The notes under the pieces are model-generated. The model searched no databases. It was given only the letters and a program-made list of their open reading frames with translations, and was not told the origin of the DNA. Positions 8,441 to 17,830 of a DNA stretch of 27,860 bases are shown one piece after another (the first letter of the stretch is position 1; the number at the start of each line of letters is the position of its first letter). A program made the translations under genes and the position numbers. The stretch is from positions 1 through 27,860 of IMG/VR virus record IMGVR_UViG_3300037424_002918; one strand, given 5' to 3'. The stretch comes from a virus (taxonomy: Duplodnaviria > Caudoviricetes).

Positions 8441-9127
8441 TCAAATCACCGGAACTTCAGTTTCTGTAAAGTGAACTACCGCACGGGTATGCGCCGGTTT
8501 CTGGGCGTTAATCGCTTCGATTATCACCTGCTGGTCAACTTCCATGCCTTGCGAATATGTGATGTGAATCCAGAAGTGGAAGGCAAGTGAAAGGTCACTG
8601 ATCGAATAGATCCTCGTCTGCCGGTATGCTTCATAGATACCGATATCATCCGCACTGAAAATATGCGAGACATTGACTTCCGCTTCTCTGGACTGGTCTT
8701 CACTATCCAGAATAATCCGCGCCTGATCATCAGCGTAATACTCGACAATCTGCTCACAGGTGATTCCAAAGATCTCTTCGATCAGGTATTTCATACCTGC
8801 CTTGGTGCCCAGAAATTGGTTGCGATAAGCCTGAGTCGAAATCCTTTCCAACAATGCAGAATCATTCTCACCGGACAATCGCCTGAGTCCCCTGTCGAAC
8901 GCATGCAAATCGAGGTCTGCCGTTCTCAATTCTGAGCTGTAATAGGGATCTGCTTCATGCCGAATGAGGAAATACCGCCTTAGTCGAGCTGTTAAAATGG
9001 CAATCTTCAACTCTTCCAGAACCAACCCGATCGAAACCAGCAATCCATATAACTTGGACTCATGTTTCTCCTTACACTTGCGCACAGATGGCAACAGCCA
9101 CCACATAAAGTCTGCAAAATTATTCAA
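8441..9127 (-). CDS. Baseplate wedge protein (P2 gpI / Mu gp48-like)
   Basis: LDLHAFDRGLRRL.GE.D..L..RI, GTKAGM and the terminal KPAHT motif; directly downstream of J. Confidence 0.8.
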   Translation of the reverse strand: MNNFADFMWWLLPSVRKCKEKHESKLYGLLVSIGLVLEELKIAILTARLRRYFLIRHEADPYYSSELRTADLDLHAFDRGLRRLSGENDSALLERISTQAYRNQFLGTKAGMKYLIEEIFGITCEQIVEYYADDQARIILDSEDQSREAEVNVSHIFSADDIGIYEAYRQTRIYSISDLSLAFHFWIHITYSQGMEVDQQVIIEAINAQKPAHTRAVVHFTETEVPVI

Positions 9128-10307
9128 TTGAGAATGTCTCCTTATTCACATCAAGGATCTGAACATTGGCAGCCGTTTCATCTCCCAGACTGCCATCGAT
9201 GCTGGCGTCCTGATAAGTTCTGTCCTTGATGCGATGTGAGATCACAATCTGGTCAAATACCAGGAACTGATCGACCGAAACATTGACATCCTGCCTGGGC
9301 GAATTAACCTTCAGATTGTAAACACCGGACACATCCATGATTTCATTGATCAGACGCGCAATTCTTAATCCCTCACCTAACTGCAGCCGACCTGAATAAT
9401 TATTGACTGCTTCACGAACTTTAGAATCAACCGTTTCTTGCGATGCATTCACATAGCGGATCACTTCCAGATCGAGGTCGATTGACCTGATTTCAGGCGC
9501 CAAAATTCTGACGTCGGCTGTCAACGGCTTGCGCGCTTTGATGCAGTGATGCACTTCATTGATCAGCTCCGCCGATGGAACGCCGTTCTCCCCCAGTATC
9601 ACCACTCCGACCGTACCTGGACCGAAGGGAAAATCATCCAGCACCGATGCTGCAACCACTCCCTGCACCGACAACGCCCAATTGCGATAAGCCTCGCGCG
9701 TGCCACCCAGTCCGAGTGTCTCCCATTTGCCAATGGCGCGTTCACGGAGTTGTTCATCGGATTCGGGATCGCTTCCTTCCTGGATCAGATAACCGGCGCT
9801 GTTGGTTACCGCATTTATTCCGGTCACTCGGGTGACCATCCGCGTAATCGTATCCTGCCCGACGTTCCAGGCTTTACCCGCTAACTCCGCTTCGGCGATC
9901 ACCTGGACAATGGTTTGATCTTCTTCAAGAACCGCTTCTGCAATGGTTATAAACCGGTAATCGTTGCCACTCGCATCCTTCTGTGATTTACAGATCGTAC
10001 CAACTGGGATGGATATATTCTGAGCTGCAGGTGTATTGCTTCTGAATGTCAGATTTACTTTCGCCTTGACCGCCTGTCTGCGGACGAGCCCCATTTCCCT
10101 CACCTTCAGATCGAGCCAGAAACCGGTTGCTGTCTGTACGAACGATTGCTGCATCACCGTCTTCACCAGTCCATATAGATCGGCAATCACTTTAGCGATC
10201 ACCTCCAACAGACCACGAATCGCAGCCGATGGGTTCAGATTGGTGAAGGGAGTGCGTACAACCAGTTCGGACATCAGATCGTCCAGGACTTCGTTAAAGG
10301 ATTTCAT
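9120..10307 (-). CDS. Baseplate J/gp47 family protein
   Basis: TATGFWLD, G.DPESDEQLRERA, GT..AY..WALSV.GV and GPGTVGV motifs. ATG 10307 is the likely native start; an in-frame GTG lies at 10313. Confidence 0.92.
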   Translation of the reverse strand: MKSFNEVLDDLMSELVVRTPFTNLNPSAAIRGLLEVIAKVIADLYGLVKTVMQQSFVQTATGFWLDLKVREMGLVRRQAVKAKVNLTFRSNTPAAQNISIPVGTICKSQKDASGNDYRFITIAEAVLEEDQTIVQVIAEAELAGKAWNVGQDTITRMVTRVTGINAVTNSAGYLIQEGSDPESDEQLRERAIGKWETLGLGGTREAYRNWALSVQGVVAASVLDDFPFGPGTVGVVILGENGVPSAELINEVHHCIKARKPLTADVRILAPEIRSIDLDLEVIRYVNASQETVDSKVREAVNNYSGRLQLGEGLRIARLINEIMDVSGVYNLKVNSPRQDVNVSVDQFLVFDQIVISHRIKDRTYQDASIDGSLGDETAANVQILDVNKETFSIE

Positions 10308-10315
10308 CTTCACTA

Positions 10316-10639
10316 TCAAATACCTTTCATTGCGACGATGAGCGGGAAACTTTTCAGGTTACTCATCCTTTCCATCCCCTTTTTGGAAAGACATTTGTTC
10401 TGATATCCCATCATCGCGCATGGGACGAGGATCGCGTGTTTTACTATAACCAGCGTGAGAAACTCTGTTCACTTCCCGCCCAATGGACAAGTGTTCTATC
10501 ACCAGAACCATTCGTTTTTGTAGCACGTGGGCGGTCACCTTTTCGTCTTGTTGATCTCTTGGAGTTATCTCGCTTACTACAGTCAATATCTGAAGGGGCA
10601 GATGCTCACAAAGCGAAACTTGACGCCGAGGATGTGTAA
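10316..10639 (+). CDS. DUF5372 (Y4bD/Y4pK)-like small protein; the conserved N-terminus has no start codon in the integrated state
   Basis: The frame is open from the left junction: SNTFHCDDERETFQVTHPFHPLFGK...SLPAQWTSV..P...GRSPFRLVDLLEL. The first GTG (10436) lies downstream of the THPFHPL motif. Family name is from recall. Confidence 0.65.
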   Translation, partial: SNTFHCDDERETFQVTHPFHPLFGKTFVLISHHRAWDEDRVFYYNQREKLCSLPAQWTSVLSPEPFVFVARGRSPFRLVDLLELSRLLQSISEGADAHKAKLDAEDV

Positions 10640-10679
10640 AGTGATTTATGCCGTAAGTGTAAAGTCTATTACGCCGTAT
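10634..10679 (+). repeat. Tandem 23-bp imperfect direct repeats, putative protein-binding sites
   Basis: GTGTAAAGTGATTTATGCCGTAA and GTGTAAAGTCTATTACGCCGTAT (18/23 identical); an inverted relative lies at 10781-10800. Confidence 0.65.
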
Positions 10680-10761
10680 AAGGTTCCAGCTCACTACATT
10701 ATGTCCCTTGATATATTGCTTGTTAATCATAGGTCTATTGGATATTTTCCTGGCAAAGGGG

Positions 10762-10791
10762 TTGACAATGCGTCATTGAAAGGCGTATATT
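10762..10791 (+). promoter_or_regulatory. Sigma70-type promoter for the HTH-recombinase operon
   Basis: TTGACA-18 nt-TATATT, about 40 nt upstream of the GGAG-preceded ATG at 10831. Confidence 0.65.
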
Positions 10792-11301: not shown

Positions 11302-11348
11302 CCTTGGATACTGCTCGGACATCAGTATCGTTCGCTGGACGTAGTCTG

Positions 11349-11597
11349 ATGGATGGCTACGAGGCATTGCGTAACCGGGCTATGCACAACGATGGCTCTT
11401 CTGGGGGGCTGTCATTATTCCTCACCCGCGGGATGGCTGTCTGGATGCGGGTCTGGAAAGAGCATGAACCGTCAAGAACGCGAGTGTTATCCACTAATGC
11501 AGACAAGGTGCAGGTGATGTTGCCAATTGATTTGCAGGATGATCTCGTGTCAGCACTCGTTGGTTTGGCAATAAACGTTCGAAAGGAAAGCAGATGA
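11349..11597 (+). CDS. Small element protein, possibly made as a -1 frameshift fusion to the HTH protein
   Basis: YEALR...GLSLFLTRGMAVWMRVW. Its stop overlaps the recombinase start (ATGA) and the frame is open back through the A8 run at 11282-11289. Confidence 0.65.
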   Translation: MDGYEALRNRAMHNDGSSGGLSLFLTRGMAVWMRVWKEHEPSRTRVLSTNADKVQVMLPIDLQDDLVSALVGLAINVRKESR

Positions 11598-13687
11598 TGA
11601 TAGATACAAACTCCAAAGTGACTTCTTTGCACCTCAAGCGGGATGCCTATTTGTATATCAGGCAATCCACGTTGCGACAAGTATTCGAGAATCAGGAAAG
11701 CACCAAACGTCAATATGCATTGCGCAATCGCGCCATTGCACTGGGTTGGTCTGACGACCAGTTGCAAGTCATCGACTCTGACCTCGGACATTCCGGGGCA
11801 TCTTCGGTCGATCGTGAAGGCTTCCAGAAACTGGTTGCTGAAGTTAGCATGGGACGAGCAGGGATCGTAATCGGCTTGGAGGTTTCGCGACTTGCGCGCA
11901 ACAACACCGACTGGCACCGACTGCTGGAAATCTGCGCCCTGTCCGACACTTTGATTCTCGACGAAGACGGATTTTACAATCCCAACGACTTTAATGATCG
12001 ATTGTTGTTGGGTTTGAAAGGCACGATGAGCGAAGCCGAACTGCATTTCATGCGTGCTCGACTGCGTGGCGGCGTACTGAGCAAGGCGCAACGGGGAGAA
12101 TTTCGCAGCAGACTGCCAACGGGATTTATATATGACGACCAGGGTAACGTTCAGCTGCATCCTGATAAACAGGTGAGGCAGGCAATTGCTCTCCTCTTTG
12201 CGACTTATCGCCGAACCGGTTCGGGATCGGCTACAGTAAAATTTTTCCGCGAACAGAATTTTCTTTTCCCACGGCGGGTGTATTCTAAACTCGATAAAAA
12301 TGAACATTATTGGAAGCCTCTTACTCATAACCTGGTTTTGTGGCTTTTGCATAATCCCCGCTATGCCGGTGCATACTTCTATGGGCGAACTCGCTACTCC
12401 AGGTGTATCGACGGAGGTAGTTCGACCAAAAAACTGCCCCGCGACGAGTGGCATACCTTGATTCCTGACGCGCATGACGGCTATATTACCTGGGAGGAAT
12501 ACGAAAACAATCAACGACAGCTTCTTGCATCCGCCCAAGCGTATGGATTGGATCGACGCAAAAGTCCACCACGCGAAGGACCAGCGTTGCTTCAGGGAAT
12601 TGTGGTCTGCGGCGTTTGTGGGAAGAGGATGAGCGTTAAGTATCGCTCGCGCGGAGACAAAACCATTCCGCTCTACAGGTGCGAGCGCGATGCTATACAA
12701 TACAGCAGTCAGGCTTGCCAGAGCATATTGGGAGATGAAATTGACATGGAAGTAAGTCGTCTTCTGTTGGAGACAATTACTCCATTGGCAATGGAAGCTG
12801 CTCTGGCTGTGCAGCAAGAACTTTCCGCTCGGTTGAATGAAACTGACCGACTCCGTATGCAACAGGTTGAGCGAGTGCGCCATGAAGCGGATCTCGCAAG
12901 ACGAAGATACATGCTGGTTGACCCAGATAACCGTCTGGTGGCCGATACGCTCGAAGCCGATTGGAACGAGAAACTTCGTGCGCTTCGTGATGCGAAGGAT
13001 GCTTGCGAGAAACGGCGCATTGAAGATCAGATACAAGTGAACGAAGAAGTGTGTAGTCGAGTTAAAGCGTTGACGACCGATTTCCCGCGACTTTGGAATG
13101 ATCCAAACACCTCGGACCGCGACCGCAAGCGGATTGTTCGGTTGTTGATCAATGATGTCACACTGGTCAGGGAGGACAATATTATTGTGCACGTTCGATT
13201 CAAGGGCGGCACAACAACCACCTTGACGTTGCACAAACCAAAGCAAGTTCAAGAGAAGTACCGTACGCTGCCTGAGGTGATAGAACAGATTAGTGACCTT
13301 GCAAAACAACACACGGATGGACAGATAGCGAAAATTCTCAATGAGCGCGGACACCGCTCGGGGAGAGGGTGTGCGTTCAATCCTAATATTATAAAGAATC
13401 TTCGCCAGCGTTACGATGTTAAAAGTTATTATGAGCATCTGCGTGAATCCGGAATGCTTAATGCAATAGAAATGGCAGCTCGTTTGGGAACTTGCCGCGA
13501 AACAGTTTGGGCATGGAGATCGGCAGGGCTGTTGAAGGCACATATTGCAAATGAAAAGAATGAATACCTTTTTGAGCCGCCGGGCATAAACTCACCTGTC
13601 AAACATTCGGGCAAGAAACTTTCCAAATATCTCCAGGATGCGGAGTTTTCATCCAATCCAATCATTAGGGAGCAGTATGAAGTATAG
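11594..13687 (+). CDS. Large serine recombinase (resolvase, recombinase, Zn-ribbon, coiled coil, extra C-terminal HTH)
   Basis: Catalytic AYLYIRQS, DLGHSG, VSRLARN, LHNPRYAG, CGVCG..YRC..C, and C-terminal LNAIEMAARLGTCRETVWAWRSAGLL. Confidence 0.95.
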   Translation: MMIDTNSKVTSLHLKRDAYLYIRQSTLRQVFENQESTKRQYALRNRAIALGWSDDQLQVIDSDLGHSGASSVDREGFQKLVAEVSMGRAGIVIGLEVSRLARNNTDWHRLLEICALSDTLILDEDGFYNPNDFNDRLLLGLKGTMSEAELHFMRARLRGGVLSKAQRGEFRSRLPTGFIYDDQGNVQLHPDKQVRQAIALLFATYRRTGSGSATVKFFREQNFLFPRRVYSKLDKNEHYWKPLTHNLVLWLLHNPRYAGAYFYGRTRYSRCIDGGSSTKKLPRDEWHTLIPDAHDGYITWEEYENNQRQLLASAQAYGLDRRKSPPREGPALLQGIVVCGVCGKRMSVKYRSRGDKTIPLYRCERDAIQYSSQACQSILGDEIDMEVSRLLLETITPLAMEAALAVQQELSARLNETDRLRMQQVERVRHEADLARRRYMLVDPDNRLVADTLEADWNEKLRALRDAKDACEKRRIEDQIQVNEEVCSRVKALTTDFPRLWNDPNTSDRDRKRIVRLLINDVTLVREDNIIVHVRFKGGTTTTLTLHKPKQVQEKYRTLPEVIEQISDLAKQHTDGQIAKILNERGHRSGRGCAFNPNIIKNLRQRYDVKSYYEHLRESGMLNAIEMAARLGTCRETVWAWRSAGLLKAHIANEKNEYLFEPPGINSPVKHSGKKLSKYLQDAEFSSNPIIREQYEV

Positions 13688-13694
13688 TCCTTGA

Positions 13695-14117
13695 TCATGA
13701 CTGGATTACAGCCTCCGTATCGTTCACACCGAATCCCCAGACGATTGATTCGGAATTTCTCCCGTTTACCGGTCTAAAATTGATCTCGAACCTCTTTTCT
13801 TCAGTGTCAAACACCAACGGCTTAATCGAGATCGAGATGTCCTCAATGCGTGGTTCTGCTTCGAGTGCATAACGCAAATAGCGGATCGCTATTGCCCGGT
13901 TCAGAGGCGTATCAGGCGCGCCGAGCAACCTGCCAATACCGCATCCCCAAACCGAGTGAGCGAACAGGTCGCCTGGTAAAGTCTCCAATCGATCCCGGAT
14001 ATCCTGCAGCAGGCAGTTGCTACCCTGCACACTCAGCAGGTCACCGGTTGAACTGACGACAAGATCGCCATCCTCATCGAAGAGGATATCGTTTCCTAGA
14101 TAATCTTCCCGTATCAT
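13695..14117 (-). CDS. Baseplate wedge protein (gp25/gpW-like)
   Basis: GDL..V.G..CLLQDIRDRLET..G.LF.H..WG and AL..EPRI motifs; ATG 14117 overlaps the upstream stop (ATGA). Confidence 0.85.
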   Translation of the reverse strand: MIREDYLGNDILFDEDGDLVVSSTGDLLSVQGSNCLLQDIRDRLETLPGDLFAHSVWGCGIGRLLGAPDTPLNRAIAIRYLRYALEAEPRIEDISISIKPLVFDTEEKRFEINFRPVNGRNSESIVWGFGVNDTEAVIQS

Positions 14118-14320
14118 TTGACCTCGCATTCGATTGGATTTGGATTGGGAACACCCAATGCCGGAGCGCCACCTCCGCCGGTCACCTGAGTGATCACCTG
14201 TGATACAGGAATCTTCACTTCGAGGTTATCGACAATTGCCTTGGCTAGCTTTTCACAAAATGCATCGATGTTGTCGATGTTCTGGATGGCGGCTTTAAGA
14301 GTTTCTCCGGTTAATGCCAT
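14114..14320 (-). CDS. Small baseplate-region hypothetical protein
   Basis: 68 aa with AGGA SD, coupled to the gp25-like gene. Confidence 0.7.
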   Translation of the reverse strand: MALTGETLKAAIQNIDNIDAFCEKLAKAIVDNLEVKIPVSQVITQVTGGGGAPALGVPNPNPIECEVK

Positions 14321-14337: not shown

Positions 14338-14416
14338 ATCCATTTTCTCATCCAATTATATCCATTTAGCTTGACTTTCCCCTCATAATTGGATATAATT
14401 GGATGAGTAAATGGAT
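14338..14416 (+). promoter_or_regulatory. fic promoter framed by a 27-bp inverted repeat
   Basis: TTGACT (14371-14376)-17 nt-TATAAT (14394-14399); arms 14338-14364 and 14390-14416 are complementary at 26/27 positions. Confidence 0.85.
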
Positions 14417-15457
14417 ATCCAAAAATGGAAAACTATGAAAAACAAGCTTCTAAAGCAGATCGCCGAGATTGACGAGTTTAAAGGTTTCTGGAAGGGCTTA
14501 AGCTCCTTTCCCATCGAAACTCTTTCAAAACTGCGTGTTCTCGCCACGATCGAATCTATTGGTTCTTCTACTCGCATCGAAGGAGCGAAGCTCTCTGACC
14601 GCGAAGTAGACGCGCTACTGTCAGGTCTCATGCCATCCTCATTTCGCAACCGGGACGAGGAAGAAGTTGCGGGATATGCTGATGTCATGAAACTGATTCA
14701 TGAGTCCTACAACGACATTGATCTTACAGAAAACAACATCAAGTACCTTCACAAGGTGCTCTTGAATCATTCGTCCAAGGATCAGTGGCATATCGGGAAT
14801 TACAAGAAACAACCCAATCATGTTGCTGCCTTTGACGAAACAGGCAGACAGATCGGTATCGTTTTTGAGACCACTTCGCCTGCAGACACTCCGCGCGAAA
14901 TGGAATCTCTTGTTTCGAATACAACAAAGCTTCTGAAAGAAGGTGAACTCCATCCTCTACTCATTATTGCTGATTTCATTCTTCACTTTCTGGCAATCCA
15001 TCCATTCCAGGACGGCAACGGTCGTTTGTCGCGTATTCTGACCAATCTTCTACTCCTGAGATTCGGCTACGAATACGTCCAATACAGCTCACTGGAGCGG
15101 GTGGTTGAAGCCAACAAAGAGCAATATTATTCATCCCTGCGAACCTCGCAGAATGCGCTTAAAGTGCCAGAAGCTGATACAAGCGTCTGGACTGAATTCT
15201 TCCTCGAAATGCTCAAGAAGCAGAAAGATCTCCTCGCCCAAAAAATCGAGAGAGAACGCAAGATGTCAGTCCGTTCCAAATTGTCCAATGAAATCTTGAG
15301 TTATACCGAAGAACAGGGACGTGTCACTGTAGCCGGGCTCGCTCAGGCTCTTGACACCAACCGCAATACCATTAAGACTCATCTGCAAAAACTCGTCGAT
15401 GAAGGTTTGTTAGCTTTGCATGGTAAAGGACGCGGTTCTTACTACACACCCCAATGA
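14411..15457 (+). CDS. fic: Fic family AMP-transferase with an N-terminal inhibitory motif and C-terminal winged HTH
   Basis: Canonical HPFQDGNGRLSR; STRIEG matches (S/T)xxxE(G/N); C-terminal VTVAGLAQALDTNRNTIKTHLQKLVDEGLL..HGKGRGSYY. Alternative start at 14435. Confidence 0.95.
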   Translation: MDIQKWKTMKNKLLKQIAEIDEFKGFWKGLSSFPIETLSKLRVLATIESIGSSTRIEGAKLSDREVDALLSGLMPSSFRNRDEEEVAGYADVMKLIHESYNDIDLTENNIKYLHKVLLNHSSKDQWHIGNYKKQPNHVAAFDETGRQIGIVFETTSPADTPREMESLVSNTTKLLKEGELHPLLIIADFILHFLAIHPFQDGNGRLSRILTNLLLLRFGYEYVQYSSLERVVEANKEQYYSSLRTSQNALKVPEADTSVWTEFFLEMLKKQKDLLAQKIERERKMSVRSKLSNEILSYTEEQGRVTVAGLAQALDTNRNTIKTHLQKLVDEGLLALHGKGRGSYYTPQ

Positions 15458-16921: not shown

Positions 16922-17830
16922 ATGATAACTGTAAAAGAACAAAATTTCGGCGTTGAAATCGAGCTCGTCGGAGCGCCAAGACGCAGCATCGCCGACGCGG
17001 TCGCTGCAGGCTTAGGCGGACGGGTCACCGCCACGCACCGAACAGGATACGACGCCACTATCGTTACCGACCAACAGGGTCGGGAGTGGAGCATCCAGAA
17101 CGACAGTTCCATCCCCGTGGTCAACGGCTACAAGGGCTCTGAAATCGTAACGCCGGTATTGACTTATGACGATATCGATCTGCTGCAGAACGTGATTCGC
17201 ACGGTCAGAGCCACACGCGCTAAAGCCCATAATGATTGCGCTATCCATATTCACGTGGATGCCTCACAGCACGACACTAAATCCCTGTCGATCCTCGCCA
17301 AAATGGTTTACAAGAACGAGGACATGATCTTCGACGCCCTGCAGGTGCATCCTGATCGCCGCCGCAGATATACCCGCCCGATGGATGATGATTTCATTGA
17401 CAAGGTTGCCAAACGCAGACCACGCTCGAAGCAAAAGCTAAACGAGATGTGGTTCGGACAATACAATCCCAATCCTGCTCACTACGAAGGGCATCGTTAT
17501 CACGGACTCAATCTCAACAACCTCTGGCGCTCAATCGGCACCGTCGAACTACGATACTTCAACTCGACACTGCATGCCGGTAAGATCAAGAGCTACATTC
17601 AGCTCTGCCTGGCATTATCAGCCAAGGCTTTGAACGCACGCTCCGCCAGCCACCGGAAAATCTCGACCGACAATCCCAAATTCAACTTCCGTGTCTGGCT
17701 AGTCTCGACCCTCGGCATGAAGGGTGATGAGTTCAAAACCGCACGCTATCACTTGACCAGATACCTGCCCGGCAACAGCGCCTGGCGGTATGGACGACCG
17801 ACAACTTCAAACGGCAGCGCAGCATCATGA
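16922..17830 (+). CDS. Amidoligase family protein (COOH-NH2 ligase, Amidoligase_2-like)
   Basis: FGVEIEL, W.I..DSSI, EIVTPVL, CAIHIHV, RYHGLNL and TVELRYFNSTL motifs. Confidence 0.92.
   Translation: MITVKEQNFGVEIELVGAPRRSIADAVAAGLGGRVTATHRTGYDATIVTDQQGREWSIQNDSSIPVVNGYKGSEIVTPVLTYDDIDLLQNVIRTVRATRAKAHNDCAIHIHVDASQHDTKSLSILAKMVYKNEDMIFDALQVHPDRRRRYTRPMDDDFIDKVAKRRPRSKQKLNEMWFGQYNPNPAHYEGHRYHGLNLNNLWRSIGTVELRYFNSTLHAGKIKSYIQLCLALSAKALNARSASHRKISTDNPKFNFRVWLVSTLGMKGDEFKTARYHLTRYLPGNSAWRYGRPTTSNGSAAS

Follow-up and report, generated by a model that had tools for sequence, protein, structure and literature searches.

A serine recombinase element in a phage baseplate module carries a DUF5372 gene that is probably split by its attachment site and whole only in the excised circle

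We describe a mobile element, inserted among the tail genes of a phage, that probably splits one of its own genes at its attachment site. This gene, which encodes a DUF5372 protein, would be expressed from the excised circle only, as the last gene of the element's operon, and its product of 116 amino acids is predicted to bind the large serine recombinase of the element in the manner of a directionality factor, likely favouring insertion or target capture. By comparing DNA sequences, we were able to show the exact ends of the element, the in-frame junction that joins the two parts of the gene and the conservation of this layout in related elements.

The window, that is, the whole stretch of DNA analysed here, is a complete IMG/VR virus record of 27,860 bp that represents about 80% of the phage genome. 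Its minus strand carries a tail and baseplate module with tape measure, Phage_base_V, gp25-like and Baseplate_J genes. Between the gp25-like gene (13695-14129) and the Baseplate_J gene (9120-10307) we found a block of plus-strand genes made up of a DUF5372 ORF, an HTH gene, a small ORF and the gene of a large serine recombinase (table 1). The insert measures 3388 bp between the TT at 10303-10304 on the left and the TT at 13691-13692 on the right, and its exact site is the place where the stop of the gp25-like gene and the start of the Baseplate_J gene overlap.

Table 1. Features of the element and of the phage genes that flank it, with positions in the window and the basis of each assignment
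Feature	Position	Strand	Basis or remark
Baseplate_J gene, separated by the insertion from its first two codons	9120..10307	-	Baseplate_J E 3.7e-51
Left crossover dinucleotide TT (attL core)	10303..10304	.	Unoccupied site in run X6; empty-site relative L082; TCAAAT arm motif 11 nt away, as in relatives
Left arm (P' arm), also residues 6-16 of the predicted circle-form DUF5372 protein	10305..10336	+	Left-end alignment of 41 rows; arm profile
DUF5372 gene body, without own start codon, ribosome site or promoter	10305..10639	+	Stop TAA 10637-10639; PF17342; ORF tables
Promoter-like site TTGACA-18-TATATT	10762..10791	+	Best of consensus scan, 11/12 matches; consensus match only
HTH protein gene, 162 aa	10813..11301	+	HTH_28/HTH_23/HTH_32; position conserved in 39/40 related elements
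Small conserved ORF between the HTH and recombinase genes; start uncertain (TTG 11304 or ATG 11349)	11304..11597	+	tblastn matches at the same place in 17/40 related elements
Large serine recombinase gene, 697 aa, stop TAG 13685-13687	11594..13687	+	Resolvase + Recombinase + Zn_ribbon_recom domains
Right arm: SD-like AGGGAG 13667-13672, ATG 13677-13679, first five DUF5372 codons	13667..13691	+	Overlaps the recombinase 3' end in another frame
Right crossover dinucleotide TT (attR core)	13691..13692	.	X4 copy matches to 13692, then another flank; unoccupied site in X6
gp25-like baseplate wedge gene; stop TGA 13695-13697 overlaps the original Baseplate_J ATG 13696-13698	13695..14129	-	GPW_gp25 E 3.9e-5, below the Pfam cut-off

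In a lake-water metagenome (run X6, record 14), a contig of 632 nt aligned with the window over 10222-10286 and then continued into AAGGATTTGATCATG. This contig, which belongs to a related phage, holds the unoccupied site AAGGAT-TT-GATCATG, corresponding to the left flank of the window, a TT and the right flank. An IMG/VR phage whose Baseplate_J is 80% identical to that of the window (L082) also has no insert and offers an empty site; the stop of its gp25-like gene overlaps the ATG of a gene beginning M-I-R-S-F-S-E-I, and the window flanks, when joined at TT, give M-I-K-S-F-N-E-V with the same ATGA overlap. Moreover, near-identical copies of the element were found in other metagenomes, where the match with the window ended on the right at 13692 (X4) or 13697 (X2, X3 and X7) and on the left at 10287 (X4) or 10267 (X2). 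The divergence of the flanks beyond these positions indicates that diverged phages in these four metagenomes carry the element at the same site. The unoccupied site, L082 and the copies in X2, X3, X4 and X7 therefore place the crossover at TT, at 10303-10304 and 13691-13692.

Copies of the same element lying in different contexts (L035 and L036, identical over 3363 bp, and L045 and L051) have a right end in ...CCTT and a left start in ...CTT, which pointed to a TT core in the window and not to TC. The crossover had been placed at a TC (10316-10317 / 13688-13689) in a preliminary description of this DNA, a position that has to be given up in the light of the unoccupied site and of L082. We also considered a TT at 10309-10310, which shares the CTT, and rejected it: it predicts a Baseplate_J beginning M-I-K-M-K-S-F, two residues longer than that of L082, and does not fit the X6 site.

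The X6 contigs contained the unoccupied phage site (contig depth 12.7) alongside pieces of the element (depth about 3-4; window 11485-13324), so that the insertion may be polymorphic in this population. Apart from a skip of 105 nt within the recombinase gene in X1 and a stretch of divergence in the flank of X2, the contigs of eight public runs (X1-X7 and X10), an assembled form of the data that drops rare forms, listed no joint, and the circle junction was not seen among them.

The left end of the element belongs to an ORF that was correctly recognised at the outset as lacking a start. In the frame of position 10316, it runs to the TAA at 10637-10639 and contains a complete DUF5372 domain (PF17342, E 2.8e-23; 82.2 bits, the cut-off being 25; positions 1-77 of the 78 in the profile), with no canonical start before its motif. 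From the TAA at 10295-10297 to this VTHPFHPL motif there is no ATG, GTG or TTG in frame, and the first canonical start in this frame, GTG 10436, comes only after the motif. We collected 138 homologues of this ORF at E<=0.001; alignment A1 has 13 invariant columns.

At the other end, the recombinase gene terminates with GAA GTA TAG and a GGGAG-CAGT-ATG is present at 13668-13679, both as first described. This ATG had been thought to open a different, short frame in the circle, whereas at the TT junction it is actually in frame with DUF5372. The circle junction would consist of AGGGAG, four bases, the ATG at 13677, four codons, a codon lying across the TT and the left arm, in frame and open into VTHPFHPL, and the product of the joined gene would be the protein of 116 amino acids. 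As far as can be read from the DNA, then, the attachment site splits the DUF5372 gene, which would be complete only where the ends of the element are joined in the excised circle, with the SD-ATG at 13677 supplying its start. Both arms of the window copy, as well as its target, are diverged from the family consensus; the arms have GGAGCA, not GGTGCA, and the SD-like GGGAG is only 4 nt from the ATG.

A pattern search of bacterial genomes with the DUF5372 alignment revealed 437 relatives, and we retained the 80 best loci. Together with the window these made up 81 rows, 41 of them with both arms recognised, which formed 32 clusters at >=90% nucleotide identity; the other 40 rows, without a recognisable right or left arm, mostly represent short contigs or interrupted elements. 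The related elements come from many phyla. In 29 of the 32 clusters the junction ORF was in frame and open (the failures are L005, L068 and L072, while L076 passes with a doubtful right arm), and the other two frames were open over the same span in 9 and 5 clusters. In the stretch from the left TT to the V codon, no in-frame ATG occurs in any of the 32 clusters; a GTG or TTG occurs there in seven, three of which are V codons in an RVRV stretch. Since the junction measures 23 codons in 27 of the 32 clusters, the conservation of the frame is mostly a matter of inheritance and not of renewed evolution. Only two clusters, L070 and L075, contain indels that preserve the frame, with length changes of 6 and 9 nt.

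The right-arm starts of the 29 representatives are ATG in 19, GTG in nine and CTG followed by ATG in one. All 29 carry an SD-like motif on the right arm, against a single one at the same positions of the left arm. An AGGTGCA, likely a recombinase half-site, lies 16 nt from the TT on both arms and overlaps the SD-like GAGG. Since part of the SD-like motif coincides with a half-site shared symmetrically by the two arms, recombinase binding partly accounts for its conservation; the G that completes GAGG, and the ATG or GTG, are present in the right arm only.

The window copy follows the same right-arm rule as the family, with an SD-like motif and an ATG or GTG 14 nt before the TT, in frame with the left-end ORF, and the copy on the rhizobial plasmid pNGR234a has the same right-arm start and in-frame junction. 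In RefSeq, the DUF5372 CDS of pNGR234a (L083:4504-4767, NC_000914.2) is annotated with an ATA start; the split-gene reading explains why a proper start is missing from it. The window also shares the family layout, in which DUF5372 body, HTH gene, small ORF and recombinase gene follow each other over about 3.3-3.6 kb. When the four proteins of the window were compared by tblastn with 40 other elements, DUF5372 was found in all 40, the HTH protein and the recombinase in 39 and the small ORF in 17.

The recombinase is a large serine recombinase, with PF00239, PF07508 and PF13408 all above their cut-offs. It is 49-59% identical to the recombinases of 29 related elements, and Ser25, invariant in the 30 sequences, is inferred from its position in the motif to be the nucleophile. 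The score for XisF, the excision recombinase of the fdxN element (NF041201), was 86.3 bits against an NCBIfam equivalog cut-off of 375, which leaves the protein outside that group. The HTH protein is similar to the HTH at the N-terminus of IS481/IS630 transposases (partial NCBIfam matches, E 1e-10); IS481 transposases have an rve-type catalytic fold. The small ORF at 11304-11597 is without a family in Pfam or NCBIfam.

The promoter-like site at 10762-10791, which follows the DUF5372 body and precedes the HTH gene, is likely the promoter of the operon. A scan of both strands detected one terminator-like site in the stretch scanned, at 11391-11413 (+) inside the small ORF, and none after the recombinase gene. 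On the minus strand, a promoter-like TTAACA-17-CATAAT (10698-10726, 10/12 matches) points out of the element to the left, running antisense to the DUF5372 body in the direction of Baseplate_J, and makes up a divergent pair with the putative operon promoter. Two near-repeats TTAYGCCGTA, each with an A-rich tail, were noticed by eye at 10643-10682, between the DUF5372 stop and the promoter-like site, and may be binding sites of the HTH protein.

Models of the complex between the recombinase and DUF5372 reached an ipSAE of 0.75 (median of three runs), compared with 0.00 for the best of three controls. The 0.75 mark is reached by 116 of 157 solved complexes and by 2 of 215 mismatched pairs, although this yardstick is only a rough one here, our own alignments (A2 and A1) having been used. 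The runs share >=83% of their contacts, with a partner pLDDT of >=68. In the modelled interface, residues 338-343 (zinc ribbon), 394-414 and 480-542 of the recombinase face residues 24-28 (the invariant PFHPL) and 71-101 of DUF5372, which supports a predicted binding of DUF5372 at the base of the recombinase coiled coil. The directionality factors of serine integrases bind at the base of the coiled coil, and we therefore read DUF5372 as a putative subunit of the directionality-factor type. Its own fold model (mean pLDDT 79.5) is a small SH3/KOW-like barrel with a long helix, a generic shape that indicates no function. Foldseek returned nothing at E<=0.001 for this fold and the best match of VIA-align (Z 5.2) was to generic KOW/SH3-like barrels; with the sequence, the best E of a PDB profile search was 0.37 and no NCBIfam family was matched. 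These searches revealed no likeness of DUF5372, in sequence or fold, to a solved protein of known function, and its predicted binding comes from the contrast between the complex model and the controls.

Following the example of transposons with large serine recombinases, the element would be excised as a circle. In the integrated state the DUF5372 body has no promoter, ribosome site or start, and the protein would be absent. In the circle it would become the last cistron of the operon, with a start overlapping the last codons of the recombinase gene, and transcription from the promoter-like site at 10762 would run through the recombinase gene and across the junction. The protein would then bind the base of the coiled coil and the zinc-ribbon domain of the recombinase. 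The recombinase alone would excise, whereas DUF5372 would bias it towards insertion or target capture, and the state of the DNA would in this way set the mode of the enzyme. The role in insertion is a guess, because a partner made by the circle only reverses the logic of the known recombination directionality factors: to our knowledge, those of serine integrases are all needed for excision. Two ideas of the preliminary description live on in this scheme, namely a circle-only product at the end of the HTH-recombinase operon and a recombinase partner encoded across the att site, which the geometry of the junction and the complex model favour; amber read-through or re-initiation as its means of expression does not. 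We would go only tentatively, and with more doubt than confidence, as far as a fuller version, in which excision assembles and insertion dismantles the partner gene, DNA topology is the sensor of a self-contained switch, the recombinase excises by itself and inserts together with DUF5372, and the baseplate insert is removable and provides Baseplate_J with a substitute start.

The expression route first proposed for the circle was a read-through of the recombinase amber stop, giving a fusion of about 805 amino acids, or a re-initiation after this TAG. The stop of the window is indeed TAG and the frames would agree if the crossover were the TC at 10316/13688, but at the TT junction the DUF5372 ORF does not follow the recombinase in frame: it lies one base off the recombinase frame and in that of ATG 13677. 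The two frames are equal in only one of the 29 representatives, whose stops vary (TGA in 12, TAG in nine and TAA in eight), with the crossover TT ending 5 to 145 nt downstream of them. It had been laid down beforehand that the idea would fall if frame and stop identity varied across homologous junctions; the comparison found neither of them conserved. A programmed fusion of this kind is thus refuted, and a re-initiation is hardly credible. Expression from the integrated copy, which would use a non-canonical start (e.g., ATT 10301) or signals of the flank and would make the right-end SD-ATG a by-product of the recombinase site, seems unlikely to us on other grounds. The overlap of the right-arm GAGG with the symmetric AGGTGCA half-site speaks for it, as do the ATA start given to the pNGR234a homologue in RefSeq and the in-frame ATG, GTG or TTG that the flank offers in 9 of the 32 clusters. 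Additionally, the RNA library X4 yielded contigs spanning the element, with the DUF5372 body in its integrated context and both integrated junctions, although true transcription, its strand and DNA carry-over are indistinguishable in them. Nevertheless, in the window a TAA precedes the crossover by two codons and AAGGA directly adjoins the ATT, with no spacing, and in the relatives the flank starts lie 20-86 codons upstream, at no fixed place and on the antisense strand of transposase genes. The N-terminal extension is open and in frame to the end of the element in 29 of the 32 clusters, with no conserved internal start, and it is the right arm alone that carries the SD and the start.

The gene may also be truly split and yet encode a classical excision factor acting in trans, so that a rare circle, or a head-to-tail tandem with the same junction, drives a burst of excision of other copies. 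Several copies per genome are in fact found in relatives (three loci each in two genomes and two or three in others), and the modelled contact at the coiled-coil base falls on the site of the known directionality factors. Such a factor would, however, hinder the re-insertion of the very circle that encodes it, and the window phage has a single copy of the element; we regard this alternative as improbable. We prefer the reading of a split gene whose product is made by the circle and serves the circle's own insertion or target capture.

Most relatives sit antisense in rve-type transposase genes belonging to other insertion sequences, at a point immediately before the codons for the motif KGKxER or NAYAERF. 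We tested 14 flank ORFs (e.g., L016:9348-10124, L035:9327-10229 and L012:5168-5962): six match rve and end at profile position 99-102 of 102, one has a Mu-transposase C-terminal domain, three show only transposase-type HTH domains and four gave no match. From its insertion in transposase genes of insertion sequences, the element family thus appears to prey on other mobile elements. The copy in the window departs from insertion just before the catalytic Glu motif codons of an rve-type transposase gene and occupies the baseplate site instead. DUF5372 was found neither in 50,697 phage records nor in the other records of the viral-contig collection, and close relatives of the window recombinase were found in neither the genome-contig nor the viral-contig collection searched. 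What is new is the phage-borne copy, absent from the other phage collections searched, and its exact baseplate insertion site. A literature search returned no paper for the term DUF5372; among the matches listed for junction promoters of large serine recombinase circular intermediates, none, judging by titles and the start of abstracts, deals with such an element.

The insertion also left traces in the phage genes. The first three bases of the element, CAT (10305-10307), provide a minus-strand ATG in frame with Baseplate_J, so that the protein would begin with M-K-S-F instead of M-I-K-S-F; no good ribosome site precedes this ATG, which could be there by chance (1 in 64) or be an adaptation to life in a phage. 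The orphaned original start of Baseplate_J (ATG 13696-13698) opens an ORF of 89 amino acids (13429-13698, minus strand) that extends antisense into the 3' end of the recombinase gene and is probably a meaningless by-product of the insertion. Farther along, other plus-strand genes were observed. A Fic/DOC protein with a C-terminal winged HTH is encoded at 14411-15457, on the opposite strand between genes of the baseplate module, and resembles an insertion of the moron type. Within the structural region of the phage, an Amidoligase_2 family gene (16922-17830, E 4.1e-56) is followed by an ORF of 149 amino acids.

Elements on rhizobial plasmids such as pNGR234a belong to the same four-gene family of DUF5372, HTH protein, small ORF and serine recombinase. 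In their records the genes are annotated singly (DUF5372 with the ATA start) and not as a split gene, and the window copy differs from them in its phage location and in its diverged arms and target. The crossover of Tn4451 is GA, unlike the TT found here, and the gene content, with DUF5372, the HTH gene and the small ORF, is also different. The likeness to Tn4451 and Tn4453 lies in the movement by a large serine recombinase and in gene expression tied to the excised state: in these transposons, which depend on the large resolvase TnpX, the circular intermediate creates an expression signal across the joint (Lyras and Rood 2000, cited in PMC13023037). As presented there, the joint of Tn4451 forms a promoter for the recombinase gene, whereas in the present element an accessory coding sequence would be assembled from a ribosome site, a start, five codons and the gene body. 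In ICEclc and ICEKp1, a gene at one end comes under the control of a promoter at the opposite end only once the element is circular (PMC13023037); to judge from that account the coupling is only transcriptional, and these are large conjugative elements with tyrosine integrases.

Genes interrupted by the attachment site are also on record. In the "suicidal" tyrosine integrases of the SSV1, pTN3 and pT26-2 type, attP lies inside a gene of the element that is split on integration and whole in the circle (PMC8371274). The review in question likens them to a built-in directionality control and places such cases only in archaea (PMC8371274). As described in it, the integrase itself is split, whereas here an element of bacteria and phages, with a serine recombinase that stays intact, splits an accessory gene five codons after its start. 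The integration-dependent immunity of mycobacteriophage BPs and its relatives involves an attP in the repressor gene, with different products in the integrated and circular states (PMC4557955). According to this source, the tyrosine-integrase phage trims the C-terminus of its repressor, which carries a degradation tag, and both forms are made; in the element studied here the 5' end and the initiation signals are removed, which predicts an on/off switch. None of these systems (Tn4451, ICEclc and ICEKp1, BPs and the archaeal integrases), as the cited sources portray them, is a serine recombinase element in which an accessory gene is interrupted directly behind its start, and the present case would represent a new form of a known principle.

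Expression across an att site that depends on the state of the element is thus familiar, in the sources cited above, in the form of promoters (Tn4451 and ICEclc), of a repressor tail (BPs) and of archaeal integrase genes (SSV1). A split five codons after the start predicts a clean on/off switch tied to excision. It also explains the odd or missing starts of DUF5372 genes in public records, and the location of a DUF5372 element in a phage is unusual. If true, the split gene would be a natural and compact answer to the question of how a serine recombinase is told whether it is in a circle or in a chromosome, and would be of interest both to the biology of mobile elements and to the design of reversible integrase tools.
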